From Candidatus Peribacteria bacterium (GTDB lineage: Bacteria > Patescibacteriota > Gracilibacteria > Peribacterales > Peribacteraceae): a stretch of 64,000 nucleotides of DNA. Location of the stretch: assembly GCA_043776335.1 (NCBI GenBank), contig JAYVRL010000006.1, forward strand, positions 33,011-97,010. The letters are read 5' to 3'. Position 1 is the first letter of the stretch. Each line of letters begins with the position of its first letter. Position numbers and translations under genes: made by a program. Under the pieces are notes generated by a model. It searched no databases. It was not told the origin of the DNA and saw only the letters and a list, made by a program, of their open reading frames with translations. Positions 13,963 through 64,000 of the stretch are shown in pieces.

Positions 13963-13993
13963 TTCTCATCTACACACACTCCCCTCATCACCC

Positions 13994-14659
13994 ATGTCAG
14001 ACGACAACCTCCTCGCCATTCAAGAACTGATCGATTCCGCGATGAGCTCCCTGAAGACCGCCAACAGTCTCATCAAAGGGCTTACGGGCGTGTCGGATTC
14101 TTCTCGTGAACGTCTGACGACGCGCGCCAGCTCGATGGGCATGAGCGCGTACTCTTCGACAGCTACGAAAGTGGTGGAAGGGATCTTCGACGGCCAAAAC
14201 ATGGTCGATGCGCAGAACCAGACGTATCCGATCCCCGCAAACTACGCCTCAAAGAGCAAACTCGTCGAAGGCGACGGCATGAAACTCACGATCACCGACG
14301 AAGGAAAATTCATCTACAAACAAATCGCGCCGATCGATCGTCGCACCATGGTGGGCGTGCTCATCCAAGAAGACGGCCAATACAAAGTGCTCGCTGAAGG
14401 AAAAGCCTACAGACTCCTTCTTGCATCCGTGACGTTCTACCGCGCCGAAGTCGGCGATCAAGTGACGATCCTCGTACCGAAGACGGGCAACGCCAACTGG
14501 GGAGCTGTGGAGGCCATCATCCCGAAGCACCTCGCGGAAGCCGCCGCCAAAGCATCATTCGCGGAAGAGATCGGTGAAGAAGTTCCGAAAAAGAAAAGCC
14601 GTCTCACGAAGTCCAAGAAAACCGAAGACGGCGAGCTCAGTCCGAAGATGGAGGATTAA
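13994..14659 (+). CDS. hypothetical protein
   Basis: 221-aa ORF with protein-like composition, a lysine-rich acidic tail and no recognised motif. Confidence 0.5.
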   Translation: MSDDNLLAIQELIDSAMSSLKTANSLIKGLTGVSDSSRERLTTRASSMGMSAYSSTATKVVEGIFDGQNMVDAQNQTYPIPANYASKSKLVEGDGMKLTITDEGKFIYKQIAPIDRRTMVGVLIQEDGQYKVLAEGKAYRLLLASVTFYRAEVGDQVTILVPKTGNANWGAVEAIIPKHLAEAAAKASFAEEIGEEVPKKKSRLTKSKKTEDGELSPKMED

Positions 14660-14728
14660 TCACGAGCTGAACGCTTCGTTCCCTATCGCATTTTTCTCGT
14701 GCAAGAACATTGCTTGCGAAAGAGCGGA

Positions 14729-47828: not shown

Positions 47829-48229
47829 TACGCCGGCATGAGAATGCCGAGATACGTGAAGAGCGCTCCTCCGAGCACCATCAAGAAACCGACGAACATC
47901 TGGATCGCGGGGGTGTCGAAAAAGTATTCCTCATACCGCTCGCGCATCTTCGAATACTTGGCGGGCCACCATGCCATGAACAAGCTCTTGGCGAGGACAA
48001 ACCACGCCACCGCGACGATCAAACCTTCCCCGTCGCCCGAGATCACCCATTGACGTCGGAGCGTGATGGCGGCGAGCATCGTAAACGCCATGCCGATGAT
48101 GCGCATCATGTTCTCGTCCTTCATGAACTTCTTGCGCCACGTGAGATGTTTCTCATCGCAAAAGACGAGCGGGAAGCCGAAGACGTAACAGAAGACGCCG
48201 ACGACGAGGGAAAAACCGGAGAGTGACAT
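47828..48229 (-). CDS. small polytopic membrane protein, unknown function
   Basis: ORF 47828..48262 starts at TTG in the track. ATG 48229 (MSLSGFSLVVGVF...) is preferred. Four hydrophobic helices. Confidence 0.5.
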   Translation of the reverse strand: MSLSGFSLVVGVFCYVFGFPLVFCDEKHLTWRKKFMKDENMMRIIGMAFTMLAAITLRRQWVISGDGEGLIVAVAWFVLAKSLFMAWWPAKYSKMRERYEEYFFDTPAIQMFVGFLMVLGGALFTYLGILMPA

Positions 48230-48415
48230 ACAGGGTTTCGGAAGAGCGTAAATTGTCGTCAATTGTCATCCACAAGAGAGAAATTGACAATTGACAATGA
48301 ACGATCGACAATTCGCCACGCTCATTCGCAGCAAACACTCTTCGGAGCATTTCGAAGCAATCCGCGCATGGAGCAAGGAAAACAGCTACACTATTTGCTC
48401 GGTCTTTCCATCTTC

Positions 48416-48490
48416 GGCCCCATCGTCTAATGGTTAGGACAGCGGGTTTTCAATCCGTTAACGGGAGTTCAATTCTCCCTGGGGCTGCCA
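48416..48490 (+). tRNA. tRNA-Glu (anticodon UUC), CCA encoded
   Basis: GGCCCCATCGTCTAATGGTTAGGACAGCGGGTTTTCAATCCGTTAACGGGAGTTCAATTCTCCCTGGGGCTGCCA. Folds as a cloverleaf with anticodon loop TTTTCAA. Confidence 0.9.
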
Positions 48491-49424
48491 CATTTACTTC
48501 CATAAAACTTTGTGTTGATCGATAATAATGTTCGGAAATGCGTTGTTTTTCTTTTTTACAAAAAAGAAGGAGGATATAAGTTAGCTGGAACGGGATTTTT
48601 CTATGGGACTCCCTTCACTGATGGTAGCGATCGAAACTTTGTAAATGTTGTTACTGCTAAACACGTCATTCAAGGAATTCAGAGTAAATCGGAGGATCAA
48701 AAAGTTTATTTTCGAATTAATGACAGTGATGGATTGAAGTGGTCTGCAATGGAAACGAGTAAGTGGCTGTTTCATCCTTCCGATGAATCGGTAGACGTTG
48801 CAGTTACTCTTTTTGAATATTGGACACCACAAATAGACCATTTAATGCTAAATGACTCTTCAGTCGTGACTCCTGAATTAGTTAAGAATGAAAGTATTGG
48901 ATTAGGCGATGAAATATATATTGCTGGTTTATTTCGTAACCACTACGGCTCGCTAAAAAATATCCCGATCATACGAATAGGAAATATTGCAGCAATGCGA
49001 GAAGAAAAGGTCAATTTTCGAGGGCAAGCTGTTGATGCTTATTTAATAGAAAGTAGATCAATCGGCGGATTAAGCGGCTCCTTAGTGTTTGTGAATATGG
49101 GTTTACATCGCCGAATAGATGGCACAATTAAACAATCTACGGGAGAGATATTACGTTGGTTGGGGCTTATATCGGGCCATTGGGATATCGATGAGGAATC
49201 TATTGATTCAACTACTGAAGATGAAGGTACGAAAAATATAAACATGGGTATAGCTGTTGTTGTACCGGTAGATCGTATTTTGGAAGTAATAAATCAGCCC
49301 TCGCTAGTTGCTGCCAGAGCTCTCGCCATGACTTAGTATTTTTGATTTTAATACTCTTAAAAACCTTGTAACAATGAACCATTGCCTCAAAAACACCTGT
49401 TTGAAAAAGCCGTGGGGCTGCCAC
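48480..49424 (+). mobile_element. AT-rich integrative-element remnant at the tRNA-Glu 3' end, bounded by a 12-nt direct repeat
   Basis: TGGGGCTGCCAC at 48480-48491 (tRNA 3' end) is repeated exactly at 49413-49424. The intervening DNA is clearly AT-rich relative to the flanks. No integrase is present. Confidence 0.5.
48512..49336 (+). CDS. cytoplasmic trypsin/chymotrypsin-fold serine peptidase (Trypsin_2-like)
   Basis: 274 aa with a GTG start. His-Asp-Ser order: VVTAKHVIQG, ESVDVAVTLF, SIGGLSGSLVF. No signal peptide. AT-rich codon usage unlike its neighbours. Confidence 0.6.
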   Translation: MLIDNNVRKCVVFLFYKKEGGYKLAGTGFFYGTPFTDGSDRNFVNVVTAKHVIQGIQSKSEDQKVYFRINDSDGLKWSAMETSKWLFHPSDESVDVAVTLFEYWTPQIDHLMLNDSSVVTPELVKNESIGLGDEIYIAGLFRNHYGSLKNIPIIRIGNIAAMREEKVNFRGQAVDAYLIESRSIGGLSGSLVFVNMGLHRRIDGTIKQSTGEILRWLGLISGHWDIDEESIDSTTEDEGTKNINMGIAVVVPVDRILEVINQPSLVAARALAMT

Positions 49425-49629
49425 TCTTAAATCTAAAAAAATATCGATCCGATGTGATTCCGTGTATCTCTCCATCAGAGCGAAATCTACGTCACATGAA
49501 ATAAGTCGCTACTCTTTGGGCAGAGGCTCATCGTCGAAAGGCTCTTCATCCGTCCACGTATCGCCGTACGCTTCGAGGTAATAATCGACCTTCACTTCTT
49601 CGAGCGGCGCATACGCCTTCGCCTGCGGA

Positions 49630-50826
49630 TCATATCGGAAGAGTCTCTCGCTGAGACGCAACGTGTACGGGACGCCTTTCGCCTGCAAGGCGCACTCGAC
49701 CCGTGTACGCCACGGGCATCACGACGTCGTGGGTGTGATCATGCTTGTGCAGGAACATCGCTGCGGGAAGATCGGGCGTGCGAACGGTGACGACTCTCTG
49801 TCCGACGCCGTCGTTTTTATCGAGCTCCGCGACGAACCCCGACGACCTTGCGAGCGCGAGCATGTGCTCTTGCAAGTACTCCGTCGTGCCTTCATTGCGA
49901 TTGTTGTCCATTTGCATGTCCATCTTTCCCGACGTCATGCGCGGATAAAACGTCGTGCCTTTGCGCGCATCAGCCATGACGAACGTGTGAAGCGCGGCAT
50001 TGCTGCGGTCGGGAAAATCGCAATAGCCGATCTCCTCGAGGAATGCCTGCGCATCGGGCATCGATTCCACGAACACTTCAAATGACGGCTCATCGGGGCG
50101 TTCTTTCAACCACTGACTGTACAAATCGTAGAGCTGCAACGTGGCGGGAACGGGGAACTCTTTGCCGGGACGACGTTTGGATTCAAGCACCGCCAGCGGA
50201 GTAGGACTTCCTTTCCGCGCGTACAAGGCGTCGGCAAGGAACGGACGAACGTCATCGGGGATCGGAAAATCCGAAAATCGCGCGACGGTTTCGGTAAGCC
50301 CATGGTCGCGTGAGGAATCCTGAAGGAACGATTGGTTGATCACATCCTGAAGGTATGCGGCGCATTGCGGCAGCGCCGAGACGTGCGTCACGGGGCGATG
50401 AGCCAAGAACCGCTCGATCAGCAGCGGAGTGCCGAGGCCATAGTGAAGAACAATCTCACGTTCTTCGGGCGTGACCGGAGGCACGGCCTCATCCAGCCAT
50501 GCGTTCGTTTCATTCAACGTCAGGTTCCTGAGTACGACGGTCTGAGGATGTAGATCGATCTTCTTAGCGATGAGCTCCGGATTTGAACCCGGAAGCGCGA
50601 GAAGAATCTTTTTCGATGCCGCTGCGACGGCTTGTTGAATTTTTTCCACATTGAAAAACAATGTGCCGATTTCGAACGCCGCGCCTTCAGACTCATTCGC
50701 AAGCACTCGATCGGCCACAAGGCTTTTACCCGAACCGCTGAGCCCTTGAAGGATCACCGCACCACAATCTTCTGCCAGAAGTTGCGTCAACAATTGTTCC
50801 GCCTCGCGTTGTGAAGAAGAAAGCAT
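49630..50826 (-). CDS. P-loop NTPase of unknown function (3' end apparently frameshifted; coding signal continues to 49510)
   Basis: ORF 49630..50943 trimmed to ATG 50826. TTGCAA-18-TAGAAT ends 7 nt upstream. Walker A motif ILQGLSGSGKS. See the frameshift finding. Confidence 0.6.
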   Translation of the reverse strand: MLSSSQREAEQLLTQLLAEDCGAVILQGLSGSGKSLVADRVLANESEGAAFEIGTLFFNVEKIQQAVAAASKKILLALPGSNPELIAKKIDLHPQTVVLRNLTLNETNAWLDEAVPPVTPEEREIVLHYGLGTPLLIERFLAHRPVTHVSALPQCAAYLQDVINQSFLQDSSRDHGLTETVARFSDFPIPDDVRPFLADALYARKGSPTPLAVLESKRRPGKEFPVPATLQLYDLYSQWLKERPDEPSFEVFVESMPDAQAFLEEIGYCDFPDRSNAALHTFVMADARKGTTFYPRMTSGKMDMQMDNNRNEGTTEYLQEHMLALARSSGFVAELDKNDGVGQRVVTVRTPDLPAAMFLHKHDHTHDVVMPVAYTGRVRLAGERRPVHVASQRETLPI

Positions 50827-50833
50827 GGAAGAT

Positions 50834-50863
50834 ATTCTATACGTCTTTTCATGATTTTTGCAA
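50834..50863 (-). promoter_or_regulatory. promoter of the P-loop NTPase gene (TTGCAA-18-TAGAAT), leaderless geometry
   Basis: Minus-strand TAGAAT is plus 50834-50839. The palindromic TTGCAA at 50858-50863 can also serve as -35 for the divergent plus-strand gene (TATACT at 50883-50888). Confidence 0.45.
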
Positions 50864-50896
50864 AGGATGAACGGAACTTTGTTATACTGCAAGTTC

Positions 50897-51640
50897 ATGC
50901 GCCTTTCATCCGTCACCGCCATCGGCCTTCTCTTCTGCAGCACACTTCTCGGCGGCTGCGGAACGAAAAAACCGTCGTTTCAGCCGCCTGTCGTCGTGTT
51001 CGATTCGCCGTCGGCGCAGAGTTCGACCGCGTCCGTCACGACGTCTTCGATGCGATCGTCCGAAGCGAAGGCTCCACCCGCGAGTGTCCTGATCAAAGTG
51101 CCATTCTCGCCGCAAGCGCCGAACGCCAACTGGGACGCGCTGCACGAAGAAGCCTGCGAAGAAATGTCCCTCATCATGGTGCGACACTACCTCGATGGCG
51201 TGCCGCTGAGTTCGGCGGACGCCGAAAAAGAAGTGCAGGCGATGATCGCATGGGAACACGCGAACGGCTACGGCGACGACGTGACGATCGCGAAGCTCGG
51301 TGACATCGCGAAAGCACTGTATGGATCGCACGTCCGCGTCCTCGAGAATGTCACGGCGGACGATCTGCGCCGCGAACTGGCACAAGGGCATCCCGTCATC
51401 ATCCCCGCCGCGGGACGCCTGCTCGGGAATCCGTACTTCAGCGGGGAAGGCCCGTGGTACCACATGCTCGTCGTGACCGGATACATCGAAAACGGATTCA
51501 TCACGAATGATCCCGGCACCAAGCGCGGCGAAAAATATCTGTACACGAAGGACGTCCTGCTTGCCGCCATTCACGATTGGACGGGCGTGAAAGAAGAAAT
51601 CACACAAGGCCAGAAGAAGGCGTTGGTGATCGAAAAATAA
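50897..51640 (+). CDS. lipoprotein with peptidase C39-like (C39_2/BtrH-like) domain
   Basis: ORF trimmed to ATG 50897. Lipobox LLFCSTLLGGC. VPFSPQAPNANWDALHEEACEEMSLIMV and HMLVVTGY...ITNDPG fit the Cys/His papain-like C39_2 pattern. Confidence 0.6.
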   Translation: MRLSSVTAIGLLFCSTLLGGCGTKKPSFQPPVVVFDSPSAQSSTASVTTSSMRSSEAKAPPASVLIKVPFSPQAPNANWDALHEEACEEMSLIMVRHYLDGVPLSSADAEKEVQAMIAWEHANGYGDDVTIAKLGDIAKALYGSHVRVLENVTADDLRRELAQGHPVIIPAAGRLLGNPYFSGEGPWYHMLVVTGYIENGFITNDPGTKRGEKYLYTKDVLLAAIHDWTGVKEEITQGQKKALVIEK

Positions 51641-53298: not shown

Positions 53299-54483
53299 CT
53301 ACTCGACGTACAGCAACAAACTCTTCAGATAATCGATTTCTGGGTGATAAATGTTCACCGGATGATCGTACGCATGATGATGCCGTTGCAAGATGCGCAC
53401 GGATCGGTTGGCTTGTCTCGCCGCATGGAACACGATGGTCTGAAAGATCTCGGGCGTGATCTGATACGAACACGAACACGTCAGGAGCAGACCTCCGGGC
53501 GGAAGGATCTCCATCGCCATGCGGTTCAGATCCGTGTACGCGTGCTTGGCGAGATCGAGCTCCGTTTCGCGTTTTGCAAACGCCGGCGGATCGAGAATGA
53601 TGAAGTCATACGCGCGCGGCTGCGGCCTGCGACGGAGAAAATCGAACGCGTCTTCGCAGTACGTGCCCATCTGACTTTCATCGAACCCGTTGAGCTCGCG
53701 CTGCTTTTTTGCGATCTCGATCGCCTCGGCATCGTAATCCACCGCATCCGCCGCAACGGCTCCTCCGCTCAAAGCCGCGAGAGAAAATCCGCCGACGTAA
53801 CTGCAGACATCCAGAACCGTCTGACCCGCTGCGAACTCCCGCACGAGCGAACGCATCTCCCGCTGATCGAGAAAGAGTCCGGTCTTCTGGCTCTCGGTAA
53901 GCGAAATCATGAATTTGAGTCCGCGCTCCGTGGCCATGAGTGTGCTGTCGCCTTTACCACGAATCCAACCCTCGCGCTCACCGAGACCTTCTTTTCGACG
54001 CGCGGGGCCCGTGGATTTCTCGTAGATCGCGCTCGGCTTCGCGAGCTCCATGAGTCGGTCCGCGATCCACGCGCTCAGCTGATCCATGCCGACGGTCGTG
54101 AACTGCACGACCAGCGTCGTGCCGTACCGATCGACGATCAGTCCCGGAATGGCGTCGCCTTCGGCGTTGATGAGACGAACCGCGTCGCTGTCGCGAAGAG
54201 ACGGCAATTTGTCACGGAGTTCCACTGCTCTCTTGATGAGCCTGCGAAGCTGCGCCATCGGCTCGGATTTTTCGAAGGCAAAGGTGCGCGCGCACAGATA
54301 CGAACGATTGTTCACCGTGGCATAACACAAAAATTCGCCGACACTGCTCTGCACTTCCACGATCGCGCCGTTCTGCGTCACGGGATACGTCGCGACCGAC
54401 GTGCGATAGATCGCATGATGACGATTTTGCACGTGCACCTCGCTGCCGAGCTTGAGAGTGAGGATCGGAAAAGTCTGCGTCAT
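53299..54483 (-). CDS. PUA-domain class I SAM-dependent rRNA (cytosine-C5) methyltransferase, RlmI-like
   Basis: 394 aa. N-terminal PUA-like region, SAM motif VLDVCSYVGGFSLAA, DPPAFAK catalytic motif. Confidence 0.8.
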   Translation of the reverse strand: MTQTFPILTLKLGSEVHVQNRHHAIYRTSVATYPVTQNGAIVEVQSSVGEFLCYATVNNRSYLCARTFAFEKSEPMAQLRRLIKRAVELRDKLPSLRDSDAVRLINAEGDAIPGLIVDRYGTTLVVQFTTVGMDQLSAWIADRLMELAKPSAIYEKSTGPARRKEGLGEREGWIRGKGDSTLMATERGLKFMISLTESQKTGLFLDQREMRSLVREFAAGQTVLDVCSYVGGFSLAALSGGAVAADAVDYDAEAIEIAKKQRELNGFDESQMGTYCEDAFDFLRRRPQPRAYDFIILDPPAFAKRETELDLAKHAYTDLNRMAMEILPPGGLLLTCSCSYQITPEIFQTIVFHAARQANRSVRILQRHHHAYDHPVNIYHPEIDYLKSLLLYVE

Positions 54484-54526: not shown

Positions 54527-57500
54527 CTAGAGCCCTTTCCGCTGACACCGGCTGTTCAAATATTCCGCGATCACGGAAGCGCTGATGATCAGAAGGCCGC
54601 TCACGATCAAGAGCAGCGTGGGTTGTACGGAATGAATCACGAGCGTTTCCACGATGAAAGTGATGAACACCGACAAATTGAACATGAGATGAGCCAAATA
54701 CCCGTCGATGCGCTTGAATGCGGCGTAATTGCACATTTGTCCGACACCTTCGAAAAGACCGATGCCGATGCCGAGCAGCACGGCTTTGATCGTCATGCCT
54801 CCGAAAATGGGCCAATGAAAAAGGGCCGCCAAGAGAATGAGCGGCGATACGAAAACCAAGAGATAGAAAAAGATGTGCAGATTGAGCGTCGCGGGATCGG
54901 ACTTCGGAAAGCCTTTGATGTATTGGATTTGCGACACGACAAGCAATACGTCGAACAGAGTCGCGATGAACGCGAGAATGTCTCCCAGAAGACTGGAAGT
55001 GCCTTCGGTGATGCTGCTGTAAACAAGAATAGAGCTCCCGATGCCGGCAATGATGGCGAGCAGGAAAATCCAAAACATCGTTCGGGGTCGCTTCAAATAG
55101 GGAATGTCGCGACGCCAGAACGCGGCGGCGACCAGCAGGCCGAGCAGCGGTGCGAAGTTGTTGAAGAGAAGAAGATTCGTGCCGGTGGTATGCACGAGGC
55201 TCGCGTTTTTCAGATACATGTACCCGATCTGAGCGATCACCAAAAAGAGAAAAAATTTATCGTGAGGAATCGTGAGAAAACTCCGCAGCGGCTTCCGTTC
55301 GCTCTTGAATACGAGCTGCCGGAAGAACAGCACCAAAGATGAAACCGCGAGCACGCCGAACGCGAGCAAAAAAGTCCTGACGAACGGAGAAAGCAAATTG
55401 GCGGAGGTGTAGCGGATGTAGATCGGCTCCAAGCCCCAAATGACGACTGCTCCGAGGCGGATGAGGTAACCGACGATTTTGCGGCGACGAAGCGCGGACC
55501 ATTGCTTGTCGCTGATCGGCTTGATGCGTCGTTCGTCGAAAGGCTGAAAAAGTTCTTCATTCTGGAAAAATTTGATGCCCATGTAGAAGAGGGACACCGT
55601 GAAAATCGCGATGAGAGGCAACAAACTGCTCGTGATCCTGTGCAAGATGACGATGCGCAGCGTCAACGTAAGAAGACCGATCACATTCAGAAGCAAACCG
55701 ACTCCAAGGAACCACCGATCGGAGCGCATGCGGGCGACATACTGTCGCAGCAGACGCAGAAGGTAATAGTTGGCGGCAAGGATCGGAATAAGCGGAATCG
55801 CCTGAATGAGAAATTGCGGTACCAACGAGAGACTCTCGAGTGCGCGCTCGTAGGCCGGAAAGAGGACGATATCGAGGACGACAACGGCAAACGCCAATGT
55901 GAAGGCGGCGACCAGCAGAAATTTCTGTTTTTTTGAAATGAGCGTCTGCACGCGCGCGACCCAATCTTGACGCTCGAGGAGATCGACGAAGTCCGCAAAC
56001 TGCAAACGATCGTCGCATGACCCTGTGAGGAGCAAATCGAAATGCCCGTTTGTCGCATTGAAATGGAGACTCGTGCGGTCGACGCTCACGTCGCTCAGGC
56101 GAATGACGCCGTTGAGCTGGGACAGAATATCGTTTTTGCGAAGCTGCGTTCCGTTCACATTGAGACGAAAGGAGTAGCGACTGTGCGCGACGGGCAACAA
56201 TCTCTGATGATCCGGGAAAAGGTAAAAAACGACGTCTCGGGCTCGTACGACGCCCTCACCGACCATCGCAAGCACGTCATCAAATTGTTCGCGACGAAAA
56301 TGTTGAGCCGCATGAACACATTGAATGCGAGAGAGATCCTGCAACAGTCCTTTGTTGTAATGATCAAGCTCTTTCTGCAGCAGCGCGGCGCCGAAAGCGG
56401 TCTTCTCGGAGCGATCCGTGCGCTTCAACACATCGATGATCAGAAGCCTCGCATGTTGCGTCGACACCATCTGCAACCAATCGAATGTGACCTGCTCGGT
56501 CGGATCGGTCGTGATGTGGACATCGTCATCTTCTTTCAACGTCTCGCCGAGCGGCACCGTGCGACCGTTCACCGTGACGCTCTTCACAGAGCCTGCTTTC
56601 GCGTCGTACAGCGCGTAGGCCGCATCCAGAGCGGTCGAACCGTTCGGAAGCGACAGACGCTTTCGATCCACCGTGACCGAGCTCGACTCGCGCAGCACGT
56701 CGGACTCGAGTGCCTCCCAAAATGCGCTGCTGGAATCCCGTGTTTTCAAATCGAGCGATGCCGAACGTTTCAACCACGCGAAATTCGGAGCGACGTGCTC
56801 CGAGCCGAACATCGAAAGCGTGATGCCTTTCTTCGCCTGCTCAAACATGTGCGGAGTGCGGATGCGACATTCGATCACCGTGCCGCGCGGCAGTGTCACG
56901 TACGTATGAAGACTTTGATAACCCGCATCGCTCGGCGCTGCGATGAAATCGCGGAAATGACCGCTGACAGGCCTGTAGAGCGTATGGAGCGACTTGAGAA
57001 GACGATAACAATCCTCCTCGGTGCGAACGATGATCACGATGGAAAACGCGTCTTGGATGAGCGATGTGCCGCCGTGCTGCACGATGCGATCATGAAAAAT
57101 AAGCAGATTGCGCGGCAAAAGCGAGACGGACACGATGCCATGCGTCCCGTGCGACGTGCGCAGATCACGTTCAACCATCATGCGCAGCGGCTCACCTTCC
57201 ACGCACAAACGATCCCGCTCCGCTCTCTGATCCGCACCCTCGGGGAAAGCGTGCGGCACGCAATATTCCGCGAAGACGCGACGCACATCGCGCATGCCGA
57301 GGTGAAAAGCGATCTTGTAATAAATGGAAAGAGTTTCGAGAGCGAAGCGCTTTCGTCGCTCTTCCGTGGGCAATGCGTCGATCGTCTGCACGTTGTGCAC
57401 GCGATCGGCAAGCTTGATGAGGATGCTGCGCATATCGAGCCGCATGACGTCGAAGAGCTTTCGAAGCGTCTCGATCTTGCGATCCAAAGGCAAATCGGGG

Positions 57501-57826
57501 CTCAGGTCAGCCTGCGTGAACTTCGTGATGCCTTCGACGAGTAACGCCACTCGGCGCCCGAATTGGCGCACCAGTTCTTCTTTCTCGGTCGGAGTGTCCT
57601 CCAAGACGTCGTGAAGCAGCGCCGCGATGATCGTGTCGCGGTCGGCACCCCACTCGGCGACGGTCTTCGCCACTTCGATCACATGCAAGACATACGGAGT
57701 CCCGTCTTCACGCTGCTGCGGAGCATGCGCCCTCACCGCAAACTCAAATCCTCTTCTCACGTCCGCTTTGTCCCCGCTCAGGAGATGCTGCAGGCTCGGC
57801 TCGAGAAGAGAAAAATCAATCTGCAT
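54527..57826 (-). CDS. long RelA/SpoT homologue (intact HD hydrolase motif, TGS, ACT-like) fused to a ~470-aa polytopic membrane module with EamA/DMT-like C-terminal half
   Basis: ORF trimmed to ATG 57826 (MQIDFSLLEP...). HD motifs HVIEVAKTV...AALLHDVLEDT. Synthetase-like region GYQSLHTYV, ECRIRT. TGS region VNGRTVPLGETLKEDDDVHI. From ~55939 leftward there are ~14 hydrophobic helices. Confidence 0.8.
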   Translation of the reverse strand: MQIDFSLLEPSLQHLLSGDKADVRRGFEFAVRAHAPQQREDGTPYVLHVIEVAKTVAEWGADRDTIIAALLHDVLEDTPTEKEELVRQFGRRVALLVEGITKFTQADLSPDLPLDRKIETLRKLFDVMRLDMRSILIKLADRVHNVQTIDALPTEERRKRFALETLSIYYKIAFHLGMRDVRRVFAEYCVPHAFPEGADQRAERDRLCVEGEPLRMMVERDLRTSHGTHGIVSVSLLPRNLLIFHDRIVQHGGTSLIQDAFSIVIIVRTEEDCYRLLKSLHTLYRPVSGHFRDFIAAPSDAGYQSLHTYVTLPRGTVIECRIRTPHMFEQAKKGITLSMFGSEHVAPNFAWLKRSASLDLKTRDSSSAFWEALESDVLRESSSVTVDRKRLSLPNGSTALDAAYALYDAKAGSVKSVTVNGRTVPLGETLKEDDDVHITTDPTEQVTFDWLQMVSTQHARLLIIDVLKRTDRSEKTAFGAALLQKELDHYNKGLLQDLSRIQCVHAAQHFRREQFDDVLAMVGEGVVRARDVVFYLFPDHQRLLPVAHSRYSFRLNVNGTQLRKNDILSQLNGVIRLSDVSVDRTSLHFNATNGHFDLLLTGSCDDRLQFADFVDLLERQDWVARVQTLISKKQKFLLVAAFTLAFAVVVLDIVLFPAYERALESLSLVPQFLIQAIPLIPILAANYYLLRLLRQYVARMRSDRWFLGVGLLLNVIGLLTLTLRIVILHRITSSLLPLIAIFTVSLFYMGIKFFQNEELFQPFDERRIKPISDKQWSALRRRKIVGYLIRLGAVVIWGLEPIYIRYTSANLLSPFVRTFLLAFGVLAVSSLVLFFRQLVFKSERKPLRSFLTIPHDKFFLFLVIAQIGYMYLKNASLVHTTGTNLLLFNNFAPLLGLLVAAAFWRRDIPYLKRPRTMFWIFLLAIIAGIGSSILVYSSITEGTSSLLGDILAFIATLFDVLLVVSQIQYIKGFPKSDPATLNLHIFFYLLVFVSPLILLAALFHWPIFGGMTIKAVLLGIGIGLFEGVGQMCNYAAFKRIDGYLAHLMFNLSVFITFIVETLVIHSVQPTLLLIVSGLLIISASVIAEYLNSRCQRKGL

Positions 57827-57870
57827 CGGTGAGCAGTGTAGCGCAGACAGCTTCGGACGGCATTCAAACA

Positions 57871-57896
57871 ATAAAAAAGACCCTCCGGAGAGGGCC
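57871..57896 (-). terminator. intrinsic terminator 45 nt upstream of the RSH-membrane fusion gene
   Basis: Minus strand reads GGCCCTC-tccg-GAGGGTC followed by TTTTTTATT. Confidence 0.7.
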
Positions 57897-57910
57897 TTCT
57901 TGGCGCGGCA

Positions 57911-57943
57911 TTACTTGCCGCAGCTGCATCCACCGCCGAACAT
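57911..57943 (-). CDS. 10-codon ORF MFGGGCSCGK (candidate leader peptide or small-RNA-encoded peptide)
   Basis: ATGTTCGGCGGTGGATGCAGCTGCGGCAAGTAA lies between a near-consensus promoter and a terminator. No Shine-Dalgarno sequence. Confidence 0.3.
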   Translation of the reverse strand: MFGGGCSCGK

Positions 57944-57973: not shown

Positions 57974-58003
57974 AGTATAGTTTAGTACTAAACCAATTGT
58001 CAA
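57974..58003 (-). promoter_or_regulatory. near-consensus sigma70 promoter (TTGACA-18-TATACT) on the minus strand
   Basis: Plus-strand TGTCAA at 57998-58003 and AGTATA at 57974-57979. Confidence 0.55.
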
Positions 58004-58151
58004 CCGTAACTGTGACTTTTTGCCGCAAGAAAACGAGACAAAATCTTGTGAATTTGATTGTGTTGGCGGGAAAGGTGGGGTACATTTTGGATAGATGGTG
58101 GTGCTTTTTAGGCTACTGCTTTCTACTTCTACTTATTTTCCACCATTTCTA

Positions 58152-58349
58152 ATGGCTACAGGCACGATCAAGACCAAGACCGAGAAAGGTTTCGGATTTA
58201 TCTCCACCACGGACGGTTCTCCGGACGTGTTCTTCCATCTGAGCGCTTGCAACGGTCAATTTGACATGTTGCAGGTCGGCCAGACCGTTTCGTTCGACAT
58301 GGGTCAGGGACCGAAAGGCCCCAAGGCCGAGAACGTGATGGCTGCCTAA
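58152..58349 (+). CDS. cspA: cold-shock protein (CspA family)
   Basis: In-frame ATG 58152. MATGTIKTKTEKGFGFISTTDGSPDVFFHLSA contains RNP1 (KGFGFI) and RNP2-like (DVFFH) motifs. Long 5' UTR. Confidence 0.9.
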   Translation: MATGTIKTKTEKGFGFISTTDGSPDVFFHLSACNGQFDMLQVGQTVSFDMGQGPKGPKAENVMAA

Positions 58350-58423: not shown

Positions 58424-59260
58424 TCAGAACGAATGCTTCTTTCCGAGCGCGTCCCGATGATACTTCCCGAATTCGGCGATCTTCAGACAGAGCTCATTCT
58501 TGATCACGGGACCGTCAACGCACAGACGGATGCCGAGCGGATCGACCACGCAATTGCCGCAAAGTCCGTAGCCGCACTTCATGTACCTCTCGAGCGACAA
58601 CTGACTCGCGATCTTCCATTCTGACGCAAGCTTCGAGACCGACGCGAGCATGCGCTCCGGCCCGCAAGCGAAGACCTGATCCACGAACGACTTCTTCGTC
58701 GTGTGTTTCTTTTTTGTCAGCACATACTCGAGATTCTGCACGTTGAATCCCTTGAATCCGAGCGAGCCGTCATCGGTCGCGACATGCAACGTGGTCTTCG
58801 GGAGTTTTCGAAATTCATCCAAATATAGCAAGTGTTCTTCGCTCCTCGCTCCGACGAACACTTCGAGTCTGCACTGATCTTTGATCGCCTCTTTGGCCGC
58901 AAAATACATCGGTGCGGCGCCATAACCGCCCGCGATGAGCGCCAGATGCTGCTTCGGCTTCCAGTCGTAGAACGTCCCGAACGGCCCTCGAAGACCGACC
59001 AAATCCCCCACCTTGCTACCAGCGAGCGCCTTCGTGGCGTCACCGACGGCGAAAAACGTGACCTGCAATTGTTTGCCGTCATCGTACGCGACGCTCATCG
59101 GGATCTCGTCGACTCCCGGAATCCAGACCATGACGAACTGCCCCGGTTTGGCGCCGAGCGATACCGGGAACGTGAACGTGCGCACCATTTCGGTCTCGCG
59201 GCGAATCTTCGCTATGCGATACGTTCTCGGGAGCCGTGACTGGAGAGGAATGGTGACCAT
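58424..59260 (-). CDS. pyrK: dihydroorotate dehydrogenase (class 1B) electron-transfer subunit PyrK
   Basis: ORF trimmed to ATG 59260. FAD/NAD-binding fold (GQFVMVWIPGVDEIPMS, LIAGGYGAAP) and C-terminal 2Fe-2S cysteines CGYGLCGNC...C. Confidence 0.85.
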   Translation of the reverse strand: MVTIPLQSRLPRTYRIAKIRRETEMVRTFTFPVSLGAKPGQFVMVWIPGVDEIPMSVAYDDGKQLQVTFFAVGDATKALAGSKVGDLVGLRGPFGTFYDWKPKQHLALIAGGYGAAPMYFAAKEAIKDQCRLEVFVGARSEEHLLYLDEFRKLPKTTLHVATDDGSLGFKGFNVQNLEYVLTKKKHTTKKSFVDQVFACGPERMLASVSKLASEWKIASQLSLERYMKCGYGLCGNCVVDPLGIRLCVDGPVIKNELCLKIAEFGKYHRDALGKKHSF

Positions 59261-59264
59261 GAAA

Positions 59265-60215
59265 TTAGGAGCGAACGACGCGCGTCTTGAGCTCGGCATG
59301 CATGCCGCCGATAAGCTCGCTCAGATCCTTCACGCCGTTTTGCTTGCCCCACGCGATCATCTCCTCGCAGACCAAACGAAAGACATTCTCGCCCCTATAC
59401 TCGAGCGCGGTGCCGATGCCGATAAGGCTGGCGCCCGCAAGGAGGAACTCGATCGCATCTTCGCCGATTTCGACGCCTCCGGTGCCGATGATCGGCAGTT
59501 TGCCTTCCGTCGCTTTGTACACATCCGCAATGCAGCGAACAGCCAATGGTTTGATGGCGCGTCCCGAAATGCCGCCGACTTTGTTGGCCAGGATCGGCAT
59601 ACGGCTCGCGAGATCGATGGCCATGCCGGGACCCGCGGTATTGATGACCGTGAAACCGTCCGCGCCCGCTGCAGCACAACTGAGAGCGATCGCCGCGATA
59701 CTGTCCACGTTCGGCGAGAGCTTGATGAACACCGGCGTCTTGCCACTCACGGCTTTCACTGCCTTCGTGACGGCGGCGCTGTCGCCAACCGAACACGCGA
59801 ACGGCCTGCCAAATTCATCCTCAATGTTCGGGCAACTGATGTTCACCTCGAGAAAGTCAGGCTTGAGCTTCAGAATCAGCTCGGCCGTCTTCGCGTAATC
59901 CTCGACCGAAGACGCGATGATGTTGCCGATCAGCGGCACGGGTTTGTCGGCATTGAAGCTGCCGATCTCCTCGCGCGCCTTCTCGACGCCCGCATCGGGC
60001 ACACCGACGGCGTTCAATGTCCAATGCTCCGTCGAAATAATGGTGGGATTCGGGTGTCCTTTGTGCTCCTTCAGCCAAAGAGACTTCGTCGTGACCGCGC
60101 CCGCGCCGCCTTTCGCCGCTCTCCTCCAGCCAGAAGCTGTCAGTCCCCAAATACCCGACGCAAGTACCGTGGGGTTCTGAAATCGTACCCCGAGGAGTGT
60201 CTGCGCGAGCTTCAT
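59265..60215 (-). CDS. pyrD: dihydroorotate dehydrogenase (class 1B) catalytic subunit PyrD
   Basis: ORF trimmed to ATG 60215 (MKLAQTLLGVRFQNPTVLASG...). EVNISCPN, GGISGRAIKP, IIGTGGV motifs. Confidence 0.9.
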   Translation of the reverse strand: MKLAQTLLGVRFQNPTVLASGIWGLTASGWRRAAKGGAGAVTTKSLWLKEHKGHPNPTIISTEHWTLNAVGVPDAGVEKAREEIGSFNADKPVPLIGNIIASSVEDYAKTAELILKLKPDFLEVNISCPNIEDEFGRPFACSVGDSAAVTKAVKAVSGKTPVFIKLSPNVDSIAAIALSCAAAGADGFTVINTAGPGMAIDLASRMPILANKVGGISGRAIKPLAVRCIADVYKATEGKLPIIGTGGVEIGEDAIEFLLAGASLIGIGTALEYRGENVFRLVCEEMIAWGKQNGVKDLSELIGGMHAELKTRVVRS

Positions 60216-60231
60216 TACTGCTGACTGTAAC

Positions 60232-60311
60232 AAAAAAAACAGAGAGCGGGTAGAAGGTAGCGAATAGAAAAAGAAACTACCCGCTACTCGCTGCTCGCTA
60301 TCCGCTCTCTG
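60232..60311 (-). promoter_or_regulatory. pyrG-pyrD intergenic terminator/attenuator with two competing 5' arms
   Basis: Minus strand reads CAGAGAGCGG...AGCGGGTAG...CTACCCGCTCTCTG followed by T8. The 3' arm can pair with either upstream arm (10 bp or 9 bp), but not both. Confidence 0.5.
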
Positions 60312-60317
60312 AATTGA

Positions 60318-61958
60318 TCATGAATGCTTCACCGCAGCCTTCATGAATGCGTTGAACAACGGATGCGGACGATGCGGACGACTCTTGAACTCGGGATGGA
60401 ACTGACTGCCGAGCATGAACGGATGTTCTTTGATCTCAACGATCTCCATGAGCCCCGACTCCGTCCACTCGCCGGAGAAAATCAATCCTTTTTCCTCGAG
60501 ACGGGTGCGGAACGCGTTGTTAAATTCGTAACGATGACGATGACGCTCGCTGATCTCATCCGTTTTGTACGCCTCATGCGCTTTCGTTCCTTTCTTCAAG
60601 CGACACTTGAACGCGCCGAGACGCAGCGTGCCGCCTTTGCTGCGGCCTTTGTGCTGATCGGGCAAGAAGTGCACGACGTACTTGTCGGCGCCGAGCTTCT
60701 CTTTTTCGTCGAATTCCTGACTCGTGAGCTCGGAGTCCTTCAACATCGCGCGTGCGAACTCGATCGCAAGCAGCTGCGATCCGAGACAGAGTCCGAGGTA
60801 CGGCACTTTGTGCGTGCGAGCGTACTGCGCGGCGAGAATTTTACCCTCGATGCCGCGCGTGCCGAACCCTCCCGGCACGATGATGCCCGCGCAACCCTTC
60901 AACATTTTCCACATGTCGGCATCTTTCTTTTCCAGCTTCTCGCTGTCCACCCACACCACCTCGGCTTTGCGGCCGTGGAACACGGCAGCGGATTTGATCG
61001 ACTCGATGACGCTCAAATACGCGTCGTCCAAATCCGTGTACTTGCCCACAAGCGCGATCTTGATCGGATCAACGGCGTCTTCGTAGCGCTTTTTGCCTTC
61101 TTCCCACTCCTTCATATTCGGCTTCAGCTTGCCGAGTCCGAGCTTGTCTCCGATGACACGCGCGATGTCATACTGCTGAAAATTCAACGGCACGTCGTAG
61201 ATCGACTTCACCGTCTGCGCGGGGATCACGGCATCGCGCGACACGTCGCAAAAGCGGCTGATCTTGTCCAACAATTCCGTCGGAATCTTGTGATCCGCTC
61301 TCGCCAAAATCAAATCCGGCTGCAGTCCGATGCGACGGAGCTCACGAACGGAGAGCTGCGTCGGTTTGGTCTTCAGCTCTTTCGATCCCGCGAGATAAGG
61401 CAGAAGCGTCAGATGCACGTGAAAGATCTGCGCCGAACCCATCTCGGAGCGCATCTGGCGGATCGCCTCCAAAAACGGCTCCCCCTCGATGTCGCCGACG
61501 GTGCCGCCGACTTCGATCATCATGATCTCGGCTCCGCTTTCCTTCGCGGCTTTCTTCATCCAATCCTTGATCGCATTCGTAATATGCGGAACGACTTGAA
61601 TCGTGCCTCCAAGAAAATCGCCTTTTCGTTCTTTCGCGAGAACCTCGGTGTAGATCCTCCCCGTCGTCACCGTGCTCAGTCGACTCATCGGTTCATCGAT
61701 GAAACGCTCGTAATGACCGAGATCGAGATCCGTCTCCGCGCCGTCATCCGTCACGAACACTTCGCCGTGCTGAAACGGACTCATCGTGCCGGGATCGACG
61801 TTCAGGTACGGGTCGAGCTTCTGCACGAACACTTTGAACCCGCACGCCTTCAAAATCGCGCCGATGGATGCCGTGGCGATCCCCTTTCCGAGTGAACTGC
61901 AGATCCCGCCCGTGACAATGATGAACTTGGGTTTCTTCAGTGCGGATTTCTTGGGCAT
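60318..61958 (-). CDS. pyrG: CTP synthase
   Basis: 546 aa. N-terminus KFIIVTGGICSSLGKGI, the synthetase domain, and C-terminal GATase with GLCLGSQ (catalytic Cys) and HPEF. Confidence 0.95.
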   Translation of the reverse strand: MPKKSALKKPKFIIVTGGICSSLGKGIATASIGAILKACGFKVFVQKLDPYLNVDPGTMSPFQHGEVFVTDDGAETDLDLGHYERFIDEPMSRLSTVTTGRIYTEVLAKERKGDFLGGTIQVVPHITNAIKDWMKKAAKESGAEIMMIEVGGTVGDIEGEPFLEAIRQMRSEMGSAQIFHVHLTLLPYLAGSKELKTKPTQLSVRELRRIGLQPDLILARADHKIPTELLDKISRFCDVSRDAVIPAQTVKSIYDVPLNFQQYDIARVIGDKLGLGKLKPNMKEWEEGKKRYEDAVDPIKIALVGKYTDLDDAYLSVIESIKSAAVFHGRKAEVVWVDSEKLEKKDADMWKMLKGCAGIIVPGGFGTRGIEGKILAAQYARTHKVPYLGLCLGSQLLAIEFARAMLKDSELTSQEFDEKEKLGADKYVVHFLPDQHKGRSKGGTLRLGAFKCRLKKGTKAHEAYKTDEISERHRHRYEFNNAFRTRLEEKGLIFSGEWTESGLMEIVEIKEHPFMLGSQFHPEFKSRPHRPHPLFNAFMKAAVKHS

Positions 61959-62016
61959 GAGTGAAAGAGGGGAATTCCTAAGGGGAACCCGCCGAAATGT
62001 TCACGGCCCGCTGCGT

Positions 62017-62044
62017 ATTCTACTCACGACGAGCGCATTTGCAA
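62017..62044 (-). promoter_or_regulatory. pyrG promoter (TTGCAA-16-TAGAAT)
   Basis: Plus-strand ATTCTA at 62017-62022 and TTGCAA at 62039-62044, ~58 nt upstream of the pyrG ATG. Confidence 0.45.
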
Positions 62045-62092
62045 GAAAGGGCGCATGTTTTTTGAAAACTACGATGAATCCGAAAGGCAGGT

Positions 62093-62443
62093 TTAGCGCT
62101 TCTTCTTGCGAAGAGACGGCTTCGAAACGGCTTTGGTCTTCGTTCCGACCTCCTTCACCTTGGTCGTGATGAACTTCTGCACCTCATCCTTCGCGGTCTT
62201 GTAGTATTTCTGGACGTATTTCTTGCCCTCCGCGACATGCTTGTCCATGTGATGTTGCTCCGCAAGCTGCTGAACTTCCTTGGCGACCGTCTGACCGTCC
62301 GCGGAGAGATGCCTGCCGAGGATCTTCGCTGCGGCCGACGTATCCTTGGCTTTCATGAGCTCAGTACGAAGCTTCGTGTTGCTGAAGACGTACCCGGCCA
62401 TGACGCCGCCGAGTGAACCCAAGAGAAAGGAAAGCTTTTTCAT
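62093..62443 (-). CDS. YtxH-like small membrane-anchored, lysine-rich protein
   Basis: ORF trimmed to ATG 62443 (MKKLSFLLGSLGGVMAGYVF...) followed by a charged helical region. Confidence 0.55.
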   Translation of the reverse strand: MKKLSFLLGSLGGVMAGYVFSNTKLRTELMKAKDTSAAAKILGRHLSADGQTVAKEVQQLAEQHHMDKHVAEGKKYVQKYYKTAKDEVQKFITTKVKEVGTKTKAVSKPSLRKKKR

Positions 62444-62478
62444 AAGAACGGTGTGGAAAGGAGATCCGAAGTGTATCA

Positions 62479-64000
62479 CTACACGCGTGGAAATTTCAAT
62501 CGCAATGCCTTCAATTGAGCATCATTCAGGATCGTCGCCAATTCTTGATCGGAAGCTCCGATGACCGCGTCCGCTGAACGAAATTTCTTCAGAAGCTCGG
62601 CTTTCGTCCCGTCTCCGATGCCTGCGACTTCATCGAGCTTGGATGCCGTCATCACCGCAGCCAGACGCCGTTCTCTGCGATCATTGGCGAAACGGTGCGC
62701 CTCATCACGGAGTCGCTGCAATAAAAATCTCGGCTCCGATCCCTCTTTCACAAGAAGAGAAACGGGGCGGTCCGGCACGAAGATCTCCTCCTCTCTCTTT
62801 GCGAGCCCCGCGATCGGGATCGCGAGATTCAACTCTTTCAACACTTCGACTGCGGCCGAAAGCTGTCCCTTGCCGCCGTCGATGAGAATCAAATCGGGCG
62901 TCGACGTGAACGACTCGTCGGGTTTGTGATCCTTAGGCGCGAACACCATGATGATGTCGTCTGCGAAAGCTGGCACGTCATGATGTATTTCCGCGATAAG
63001 CTCAACGGACGGATTGAGCACGTGCCGAAAGCCGATCTCCGCGTAATAGTCTTCAAGCGAAGAATTCGCCCCCAGATAGACTTTGTTTTTCTTCACGCGC
63101 TTCAGAAGCATTTGAGTGATGATATGGCCTATTTTCCTCCCGCGCACAGAATCATCGGCCCACAGAGCGAACAATTCGAGATGTCCGCTGGGATGACGAT
63201 GCACGTACCCGCAGGCGATAACCTCCCTTTCTCTCCGCGCCACGATGCACTCTGCGCAGTCAATCTCAACGTTCGAACACGAGACTTCATGAATCTTGGC
63301 TAGAACTTTTTCACGATCTTCTTTCCTCGCTTTTCCGAAAGTAATCCCTTCATTTTTCCATTTTTTTTCATTGGCCTTCAGATCCTGTGTCAAATATTTT
63401 AGTCGACGACGCAACGTCTCGGCGATGGATTTGTAATCGTCGATCATGCCCTCTTTCACCGACTGCATGTTGAAGCTGCGATAATGCTCACGCTTCGGTT
63501 TGCCGTTTACCATCACGACCATGCTGCCGACCGTCGCGGTACCGCCAAGGTGGGATATGTCGTAGCCTTCGATGCGTTTCGGAGGCTGAGACAAGCCGAG
63601 AAGTTCCTGCAGTCCGAGTAACGCACCTTCCACTTTTTGTGCCTCCGCTTCCCACGCGGCGAATTGCTGATCCACTTTTTCCTGCGCATTGCGTTCGGCC
63701 ATCATCAACAACTTCGACTTCTTGCCGCGCTCGGGCACGACGATGCGCACGACCTTGCCTCTCTTTTCTTTGAGCCACGCCTCGAATGTCGCAATATCCG
63801 CGATCTCCTGTCCGACGATGATCGTCTCTGGGATATCTTGGGTATCGGCGTAATAGAGTGGAAGGAATTGTTCCAGCGCCTCAGTCGCCGACTCAGCCTC
63901 GCCCTTGAGCGGGAAGCCGACTTGTTCGATCAACTTGCCGTCGCGTTGGCGCAAGAGCATGACTTGAATCCTGCTGCCTCGCATGGCGATGCCGAAAATG
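62479..64000 (-). CDS. uvrC: excinuclease ABC subunit C (N-terminus beyond window) carrying a GNAT-like insertion
   Basis: The reading frame stays open upstream of the track's ATG to the window edge (...IFGIAMRGS...). UvrC motifs EGYDISHLGG, PDLILIDGGKGQL, RDEAHRFA and a C-terminal (HhH)2 (VAGIGDGTKAELL). Confidence 0.9.
   Translation of the reverse strand, partial: IFGIAMRGSRIQVMLLRQRDGKLIEQVGFPLKGEAESATEALEQFLPLYYADTQDIPETIIVGQEIADIATFEAWLKEKRGKVVRIVVPERGKKSKLLMMAERNAQEKVDQQFAAWEAEAQKVEGALLGLQELLGLSQPPKRIEGYDISHLGGTATVGSMVVMVNGKPKREHYRSFNMQSVKEGMIDDYKSIAETLRRRLKYLTQDLKANEKKWKNEGITFGKARKEDREKVLAKIHEVSCSNVEIDCAECIVARREREVIACGYVHRHPSGHLELFALWADDSVRGRKIGHIITQMLLKRVKKNKVYLGANSSLEDYYAEIGFRHVLNPSVELIAEIHHDVPAFADDIIMVFAPKDHKPDESFTSTPDLILIDGGKGQLSAAVEVLKELNLAIPIAGLAKREEEIFVPDRPVSLLVKEGSEPRFLLQRLRDEAHRFANDRRERRLAAVMTASKLDEVAGIGDGTKAELLKKFRSADAVIGASDQELATILNDAQLKALRLKFPRV

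Follow-up and report, generated by a model that had tools for sequence, protein, structure and literature searches.

A SpoT-like long RelA/SpoT homologue with a covalently joined membrane module in Peribacteria and Peregrinibacteria

The window analysed here is a 64,000-nt stretch of contig JAYVRL010000006.1 from a groundwater bacterium of the candidate phyla radiation (CPR) that belongs to the Peribacteria/Peregrinibacteria. On its minus strand it encodes a long RelA/SpoT homologue (RSH) whose reading frame continues into a membrane module of 14 transmembrane (TM) helices, the last ten of which form a drug/metabolite transporter (DMT)-type domain. We class this protein as a long RSH that resembles SpoT[Hs] and has acquired a new, covalently attached membrane module, the putative input. 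The minus-strand open reading frame (ORF) occupies 54527..57871, or 1114 codons counted from the first TTG. Translation almost certainly begins at the ATG at 57826, giving 1099 aa, because the upstream TTG sits in the T-run of a terminator-like hairpin (57901..57874) and because orthologues begin at the aligned Met. The 1099-aa protein read from this ATG coincides exactly with the gene delimited in the original prediction, which had been made from the window sequence. The gene and its parts are as follows, with helices and folds taken from AlphaFold2 (AF2) models.

54527..57826, minus strand: whole gene, a long RSH fused to a 14-TM module (1099 aa plus stop; from the ORF and the orthologue alignment)
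57293..57748, minus strand: HD (p)ppGpp hydrolase domain, aa 27-178 (Pfam HD_4, E 3.8e-34, 118 bits, cut-off 27.2)
56792..57136, minus strand: pseudo-synthetase (SYNTH-fold) domain, aa 231-345 (Pfam RelA_SpoT, AF2 fold)
56663..56791, minus strand: Core-like linker region, aa 346-388 (FAWLKRS..LDLKTRDSS.AFWEALESD; two helices in AF2)
56507..56662, minus strand: TGS domain, aa 389-440 (Pfam TGS, 28.7 bits, cut-off 22.2; beta-rich in AF2)
56201..56485, minus strand: helical (AH) domain, aa 448-542 (all-helical in AF2; Pfam RelA_AH_RIS)
55940..56176, minus strand: ACT/RRM-like domain, aa 551-629, joined directly to TM1 (AF2 topology)
55568..55930, minus strand: 4-TM adaptor module, aa 633-753 (hydropathy; AF2 helices 632-664, 668-695, 705-727 and 732-763)
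55478..55567, minus strand: cytoplasmic basic linker, aa 754-783 (8 Lys/Arg; conservation 0.20)
54530..55477, minus strand: 10-TM DMT/EamA-type domain, aa 784-1099 (EamA homologues, Foldseek)

The original prediction held that the frame runs uninterrupted from the enzyme into the membrane part, and this is borne out by independent assemblies that span the same junction (55900-56000) in one frame. Two metagenome-assembled genomes (MAGs) in GTDB carry unbroken orthologue ORFs of 1111 aa and 1101 aa across it. We assembled a family alignment of 88 sequences, comprising the window protein and 87 further full-length proteins (1060-1160 aa) of the same architecture, with overall identities of 21-91%. 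It is scarcely credible that an adjacent RSH gene and a DMT transporter gene were falsely joined by assembly or annotation. In favour of such an artefact, a related fusion gene on contig L003 (ENA metagenome) is broken by a 1-nt frameshift in the TM1/TM2 loop, at about 925..990. However, the junction is crossed in one frame by each of the 87 further full-length proteins, which were drawn from NCBI, ENA, JGI and Logan assemblies; it lies within a conserved, confidently folded region in which the RRM strand leads straight into the TM1 helix; and in the profile search the 4-TM module occurred in fusion proteins only and was never found free-standing. The frameshifted contig was seen once, and its frameshift is probably an error. 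A split-gene or misassembly explanation was rejected on the strength of the intact MAG ORFs together with the homologues recovered in the RSH-part and profile searches. The RlmI-like methyltransferase gene downstream of the fusion in L003 is syntenic with window 53299..54483.

The original prediction had called the enzyme part a long RSH and its HD domain intact on the basis of two motifs, both of which are found as quoted. All ten HD catalytic positions (R39, H48, H72, D73, E76, D77, D141, R142, N145 and T148) are present in the window protein, and 83 of the 88 family members likewise have 10/10. In Foldseek comparisons the N-terminal half aligned with Rel catalytic fragments at TMt values of 0.82-0.89. 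At the level of whole-protein models, NCBIfam spoT_relA scored 338 bits, under its cut-off of 499, and the SpoT equivalog PRK11092 scored 249 bits against a cut-off of 947, so no curated cut-off was passed.

The synthetase region retains its fold and has lost most of its signature. Pfam RelA_SpoT matches aa 255-336 with 60.4 bits (cut-off 27), covering part of the profile (21-103 of 113), and AF2 predicts the SYNTH fold confidently. We scored 15 signature positions with nine canonical Rel sequences as references. The window protein reads LRRDVRYHERRSMGS where the canonical signature is RKKDRKYHEQRHWYK, a retention of 5/15; family members range from 1 to 7 of the 15 and the canonical Rel references from 14 to 15, and the replacement residues differ between members. 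Relative to Bacillus subtilis Rel (6yxa), GRPKH has become LLPRN, DLLAVR has become DAFSIV and AAHWAYKE has become TLSMFGSE, in agreement with the divergence that the original prediction had noted here. The HD site is strictly kept while the SYNTH site drifts across the family, and for this reason the enzyme part is probably a hydrolase-only long RSH with a pseudo-SYNTH scaffold.

A bifunctional enzyme would require that the diverged SYNTH domain still be catalytic, perhaps on altered substrates ((p)ppApp, pGpp), with the membrane module toggling between synthesis and hydrolysis, a part played for Rel by the ribosome. The window protein has D259 and E319 (RelSeq D264 and E323), a YQSLHT motif and an RxKD-like Asp, and the confident SYNTH fold prediction also speaks for this possibility. 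Across the family, however, D259 is found in 60/88 and E319 in 41/88 sequences, position 264 is R in at most 6 of the 88 (most commonly V, S, I or E, and V in the window protein), and the HWxYK helix is lost. Such unconserved catalytic positions are a signature of relaxed constraint, and a dedicated, intact synthetase paralogue is encoded in the same genome. We therefore regard a bifunctional enzyme as very unlikely.

The regulatory region that follows lacks one expected part. The Core-like segment (346-388) ranks second in conservation within the family (0.41) and lies where Acinetobacter baumannii SpoT has its Core domain (PMC9974481). The TGS region proposed earlier scores above the Pfam cut-off, as listed. 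For the AH domain, RelA_AH_RIS (aa 453-542) scored 23.4 bits, slightly under its cut-off of 23.8. The proposed ACT-like region was recovered by structure prediction: AF2 gives residues 551-629 a beta-alpha-beta-beta-alpha-beta order (strand 551-560, helix 567-578, strands 581-590 and 595-604, helix 607-618, strand 623-629), and the Pfam scan of the window protein did not match an ACT domain. The zinc-finger domain is absent, in that there is no CC..H..C motif and just 83 residues separate the AH domain and TM1.

Searching the window by tblastn with the SYNTH segment identified a second long RSH.

21232..23202, minus strand: RelA-like long RSH partner, 656 aa (tblastn of the window with the SYNTH segment; ORF)

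The partner matches Pfam RelA_SpoT over the full profile (128 bits), TGS (75 bits) and HD_4 (79 bits), and has 15/15 SYNTH signature residues and 1/10 HD catalytic residues. In the alignment of the two paralogues, which are 24% identical overall, LLHDVLED of the fusion corresponds to ILQHTLRV in the partner, and LADRVHN to LTIECYY. The partner ends about 40 residues past a zinc-finger-like CCSP...HRDGC motif and has no ACT/RRM domain. C-terminal loss is thus complementary: the ACT/RRM domain is left in the fusion, which has no zinc finger, and the zinc finger is left in the partner, which has no ACT/RRM domain. An identical protein (P0239) is encoded on a 107,533-nt NCBI contig, and Peribacteria and Peregrinibacteria commonly have relatives of about 640 aa. 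In five other assemblies the fusion and the partner lie on contigs of equal size (1385808, 337120, 85812, 123361 and 49348 nt).

Because the fusion has 10/10 HD and 5/15 SYNTH residues, as opposed to 1/10 and 15/15 in the partner, we infer that this lineage has a division of labour of the RelA[hS]/SpoT[Hs] type. The split is probably independent of the proteobacterial event, given that the paralogues share 24% identity and that neither scores as a proteobacterial equivalog. In the distant Peregrinibacteria locus L006, a 213-aa HD_4-only protein and a NUDIX gene (13718..14867) lie about 2.4 kb downstream of the fusion. The former may be akin to a small alarmone hydrolase, and some family members may have extra alarmone or nucleotide hydrolases.

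Conservation of the fusion architecture extends across its lineage. Searching with the RSH part gave about 55 clusters (1071-1106 aa) that share the architecture, at identities from 91% down to 30%, and an exhaustive profile search with the membrane module added about 45 further representatives of 1080-1145 aa. Extreme rarity of the family was considered and rejected: a first search with the membrane module by itself had given 5 matches, reflecting a word-index limit, and the later searches gave dozens of clusters. Those of the 87 further sequences that carry a name are all Peribacteraceae or Peregrinibacteria. Conservation by segment, calculated as mean pairwise identity over the family alignment, is 0.51 for HD, 0.41 for the Core-like region, 0.34 for SYNTH, 0.36-0.38 for the DMT halves and 0.20 for the basic linker. 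The DMT halves thereby reach the level of the SYNTH, TGS and AH domains. This lineage-wide conservation, the family-wide degeneracy of SYNTH, the missing zinc finger and the RelA-like partner had not been part of the original prediction.

The membrane part was described earlier as four helices, a charged linker and ten helices, and hydropathy gives the same layout, with 4 TM helices (633-753), the linker (754-783) and 10 TM helices (784-1089). Lys and Arg residues number 30 in odd-numbered loops versus 2 in even-numbered loops, a distribution that fits a 14-TM topology with both termini inside and the enzyme in the cytoplasm. The 4-TM adaptor contains a near-invariant R701 (87/88), an invariant N714 (100%) and a conserved basic cytoplasmic loop, NYYLLRLLRxYxxRMR. 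It had no Pfam or Foldseek/PDB match, and profile comparison showed no likeness to either DMT half.

The assignment of the ten-helix part to the DMT superfamily rests on several lines of evidence. On the window protein, Pfam EamA matched aa 786-929 in two stretches at 22.1-22.7 bits, under the cut-off of 28.2. The same profile matches all five sequences of alignment A2 at E <= 0.1 (best 2.2e-9), and many fusion family members carry a precomputed PF00892 match. Free-standing homologues of 300-335 aa match just the 10-TM part, and these score 36-93 bits with EamA, with stretches in either half. An AF2 model of the membrane module by itself (pLDDT 89, pTM 0.88) retrieved DMT structures for all of its top 39 Foldseek matches, led by YddG (5i20; TMt 0.79, E 1.4e-6), with TPT, SLC35B1, CST, Vrg4, LicB and PfCRT among the others. 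Given the EamA matches in A2, the free-standing EamA homologues and the DMT-only Foldseek matches, the 10-TM part is a true DMT/EamA domain. The more specific claim of a duplicated EamA domain draws on homologues and fold and not on the window sequence by itself, for which the profile score falls below the cut-off; the comparison of the N-half and C-half profiles is weakly positive (E 0.004 over 23 columns).

Conserved polar or charged residues are buried in the DMT domain (D949, D959, Y969, R1039, D1041, N1050, E1060 and E1088), with E1060 kept at 100% and D959 at 92% in the family. Apart from D949 (8/14), these residues are found in 11-14 of 14 close free-standing paralogues, and in part in distant EamA proteins. 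On the Peregrinibacteria metagenomic contig L009 (1612..7008), two free-standing EamA genes in tandem (326 and 335 aa, the second being P0143) come after the fusion gene (1113 aa) on the same strand, both being close paralogues of the fused DMT domain. A weak match, P0220 (798 aa), is an EamA-histidine kinase fusion in which HisKA and HATPase_c come after EamA at the N-terminus.

These residues bear on whether the 14-TM module is a plain anchor that neither transports nor senses and only places the hydrolase at the membrane, for example apart from a ribosome-bound synthetase or near another membrane-bound regulator. The TGS, helical and zinc-finger parts are the ribosome-binding parts in characterised RelA. 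The partner keeps TGS, helical and zinc-finger-like parts and the fusion has no zinc-finger domain, which makes spatial separation plausible, and the sub-threshold EamA score of the window protein is also compatible with a simple anchor. Yet 14 helices and 470 aa far exceed what anchoring needs. The DMT domain is as conserved as the cytosolic regulatory domains; E1060, D959 and the invariant N714 lie within helices and persist across sequences that are just 21% identical, and E1060, D959 and other DMT residues are common to free-standing transporters. A plain anchor is accordingly quite unlikely in our judgement: the conservation of the DMT domain, equal to that of the cytosolic regulatory domains, and the buried polar residues shared with free-standing paralogues argue that the membrane module would be more than a generic anchor.

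The closest overall counterpart of the fusion is A. baumannii SpoT, a Moraxellaceae SpoT[Hs] (7qpr, PMC9974481) and the best Foldseek match of the full-length model (E 3e-24). Both are long RSH proteins with an intact HD domain, a retained but degenerate pseudo-SYNTH, and Core, TGS, helical and RRM-type domains, of which the RRM-type one is a predicted fold in the fusion, and in both cases the genome pairs the protein with a monofunctional RelA-type synthetase. The fusion differs in belonging to a CPR lineage, in being non-orthologous by NCBIfam (249 versus 947 bits), in lacking the zinc-finger domain and in carrying the C-terminal 14-TM module. Bifunctional Rel proteins (6yxa, RelSeq 1vj7, Thermus thermophilus 6s2t) are the best sequence matches (28-33% identity; E 4.6e-63 for 6yxa) and share the N-terminal fold and the order HD, SYNTH, TGS, AH. 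In contrast to the fusion, they are soluble and ribosome-regulated, have all 15 SYNTH residues and contain both zinc-finger and RRM domains.

On the membrane side, DMT/EamA transporters (YddG 5i20, TPT 5y78, SLC35B1 9i20, LicB 7paf) share the 10-TM fold and the topology with both termini inside; YddG aligns over about 312 columns, and free-standing homologues give EamA profile matches in both halves. Known members are free-standing, whereas the fused domain comes after a cytosolic enzyme of ~630 aa and a 4-TM bundle specific to the family. Transceptors are transporter-like sensor proteins, and on general grounds the fusion resembles both these and EamA-histidine kinase fusions such as P0220 in the covalent link between a transporter-fold membrane domain and a cytoplasmic signalling output. 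The output in this case would be an alarmone hydrolase, not a kinase.

The neighbours of the fusion gene are an RlmI-like methyltransferase, an ABC-2 transporter, a CspA-like gene, pyrK, pyrD, pyrG and uvrC. The order uvrC, pyrG (CTP synthase), pyrD, (pyrK), fusion is found in the window (58424..63984) and in L001, L002, L011 and L012, and within Peribacteraceae it persists at protein identities as low as about 53%. In the more distant Peregrinibacteria L005, L006 and L009, the order pyrG-pyrD-(pyrK)-fusion is not kept. An operon-based clue to the DMT substrate was therefore sought in vain, as the neighbours are housekeeping genes and the synteny is confined to Peribacteraceae. In the window, a cold-shock gene (58095..58349, plus strand) is inserted between pyrK and the fusion gene.

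Three features lie immediately upstream of the fusion gene.

58003..57974, minus strand: near-consensus sigma70-type promoter, TTGACA-18-TATACT
57943..57911, minus strand: 10-codon Cys/Gly-rich mini-ORF, MFGGGCSCGK, between promoter and hairpin
57901..57874, minus strand: terminator hairpin following the mini-ORF

The promoter spacer is a perfect 14-bp palindrome, GTTTAGTACTAAAC, that is unique in the window. The DNA of the promoter and mini-ORF is almost identical in L001, L002 and L011, although the neighbouring proteins are merely 57-66% identical. In L012 the end of the mini-ORF and the terminator are kept, in the only portion read. Terminator stems vary in sequence yet remain hairpins (L001, L002 and L011). 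The mini-ORF and terminator of L011 and L012 are separated from the downstream fusion gene by 150-290 nt, and the intervening DNA holds a second promoter-like site in L011 and an opposite-strand gene in L012. The hairpin had no significant match in Rfam, and its fold z-score was -1.4. We considered a riboswitch or attenuator of the fusion gene and rejected it, given the Rfam result, the z-score and the layout in L011 and L012. The upstream element is probably a separate, repressor-controlled tiny gene or small RNA.

Elsewhere in the window, GC content falls to 0.465 at 48001..50943, relative to a window mean of about 0.56, in a region adjoining a tRNA gene (48416..48487). Two ORFs there, 48512..49336 (plus strand) and 49630..50943 (minus strand), had no Pfam match. 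This region is possibly a small integrated element.

Taking the enzyme and membrane parts together, we lean towards the view that the fusion protein is the main (p)ppGpp hydrolase of the cell, of the SpoT[Hs] type, anchored in the membrane and regulated through its DMT domain, whose ligand or transport state would act as the gate. We infer the hydrolase activity, the lack of synthetase activity and the coupling between membrane and catalysis. The RelA-like paralogue (21232..23202) would make (p)ppGpp and the fusion protein would degrade it, with the 14-helix module holding the hydrolase in the cytoplasmic membrane. The RRM-like domain is joined almost without a linker to TM1 of the 4-TM adaptor, which would pack against the 10-TM DMT domain, and the latter would be a transceptor for a small metabolite. 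Its ligand or transport state would be relayed via the adaptor and RRM/Core, stabilising or breaking the hydrolase-active conformation, and alarmone decay would thereby be tied to availability at the membrane.

The relay in this proposal draws on the 2022 work of Tamman et al. on hydrolase-only SpoT (PMC9974481), in which the C-terminal domains, RRM included, are packed about the Core and allosterically activate the HD site through the Core, a stabilised RRM/pseudo-SYNTH contact raises hydrolysis, and the enzyme is insensitive to ribosomes. By analogy with SpoT, an RRM welded to TM1 would be well placed to relay membrane changes to the HD site. A nutrient input is plausible in view of the reported dependence of Peribacteria on amino acids from outside the cell (PMC4736985). 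The histidine kinase fusion P0220, in which EamA is joined to another signalling output, was also counted in favour of a membrane module that does more than anchor.

In its strict form, in which the transport cycle or ligand occupancy of the DMT domain directly gates (p)ppGpp hydrolysis via the 4-TM adaptor and RRM/Core, the transceptor model is tentative, possible rather than probable. A bolder version would have the transported molecule itself be a guanine nucleotide or alarmone, and the protein a combined transport-and-hydrolysis machine.

Several observations weigh against a gated, hydrolase-only protein. The acidic SYNTH residues D259 and E319 are kept in the window protein, which may therefore have residual or non-canonical synthetase activity, and the hydrolase-only call for family members is itself a prediction from sequence. 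The conserved polar residues shared with free-standing paralogues suit a transporter as well as a sensor. The full-length AF2 model has a pLDDT of 88.9, and its pTM of 0.68 leaves the arrangement of the cytosolic part relative to the membrane part uncertain. Finally, the gene neighbourhood offers no hint of the DMT substrate.

The second of these points leads to an alternative in which the DMT domain is a working importer or exporter and the fusion co-localises or stoichiometrically couples the hydrolase to it; for example, a nucleotide or alarmone substrate or product would be moved, with hydrolysis and transport forming one vectorial pathway. The same buried residues are conserved in the free-standing paralogues, two tandem stand-alone EamA paralogues follow the fusion gene in L009, and the structural neighbours include nucleotide-handling DMT proteins (SLC35B1 for ATP/ADP, and the CMP-sialic acid and GDP-mannose transporters). 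However, fold likeness is silent on substrate, and the best match, YddG, is an amino-acid/metabolite exporter. Our literature searches yielded no precedent for DMT proteins carrying alarmones, and the full nucleotide synthesis of Peribacteria (PMC4736985) weakens a salvage rationale. An active transporter with a tethered enzyme is in our view unlikely, and a membrane-anchored hydrolase gated by its DMT domain remains the reading that we prefer.

The original prediction also stated that no long RSH joined to a transporter-like domain had been described, and the literature searched is consistent with this. The RSH surveys (PMC3153485, PMC7229694) and the Peribacteria genome paper (PMC4736985) make no mention of a membrane- or transporter-fused long RSH, and in the other literature searched (RSH with transmembrane or EamA, CPR stringent response, Peregrinibacteria ppGpp) the architecture is undescribed. 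A RelA/SpoT split in the CPR is likewise unmentioned in these surveys, in the genome paper and in the other literature searched. In public databases the fusion proteins themselves already carry generic designations, for instance 'HD domain-containing protein [Candidatus Peribacteraceae / Peregrinibacteria]'.

Of the two halves of the stringent response, the control of (p)ppGpp hydrolysis is understood less well, and the known inputs to hydrolysis by SpoT and Rel are soluble partner proteins or small ligands. The family described here would offer a covalent, lineage-wide tie between a predicted hydrolase-only RSH and a transporter-fold membrane domain, in which the signal controlling alarmone decay would reduce to what the DMT domain binds. 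It would also represent a probably independent subfunctionalisation of the RelA/SpoT type outside Proteobacteria, with cleanly reciprocal catalytic decay, and the complementary loss of domains would amount to a natural experiment in telling the regulatory domains that serve synthesis from those that serve hydrolysis. Genome-reduced CPR bacteria would also retain a two-enzyme alarmone system. If the transceptor model is true, the fusion would be the first case of an alarmone hydrolase wired directly to a nutrient sensor in the membrane, and in these amino-acid-auxotrophic CPR bacteria the membrane module would take the place of the partner proteins ACP, YtfK, EIIA-Ntr and DarB, by which SpoT/Rel hydrolysis is regulated in other bacteria. 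This group of Peribacteria may therefore control alarmone breakdown from the membrane.

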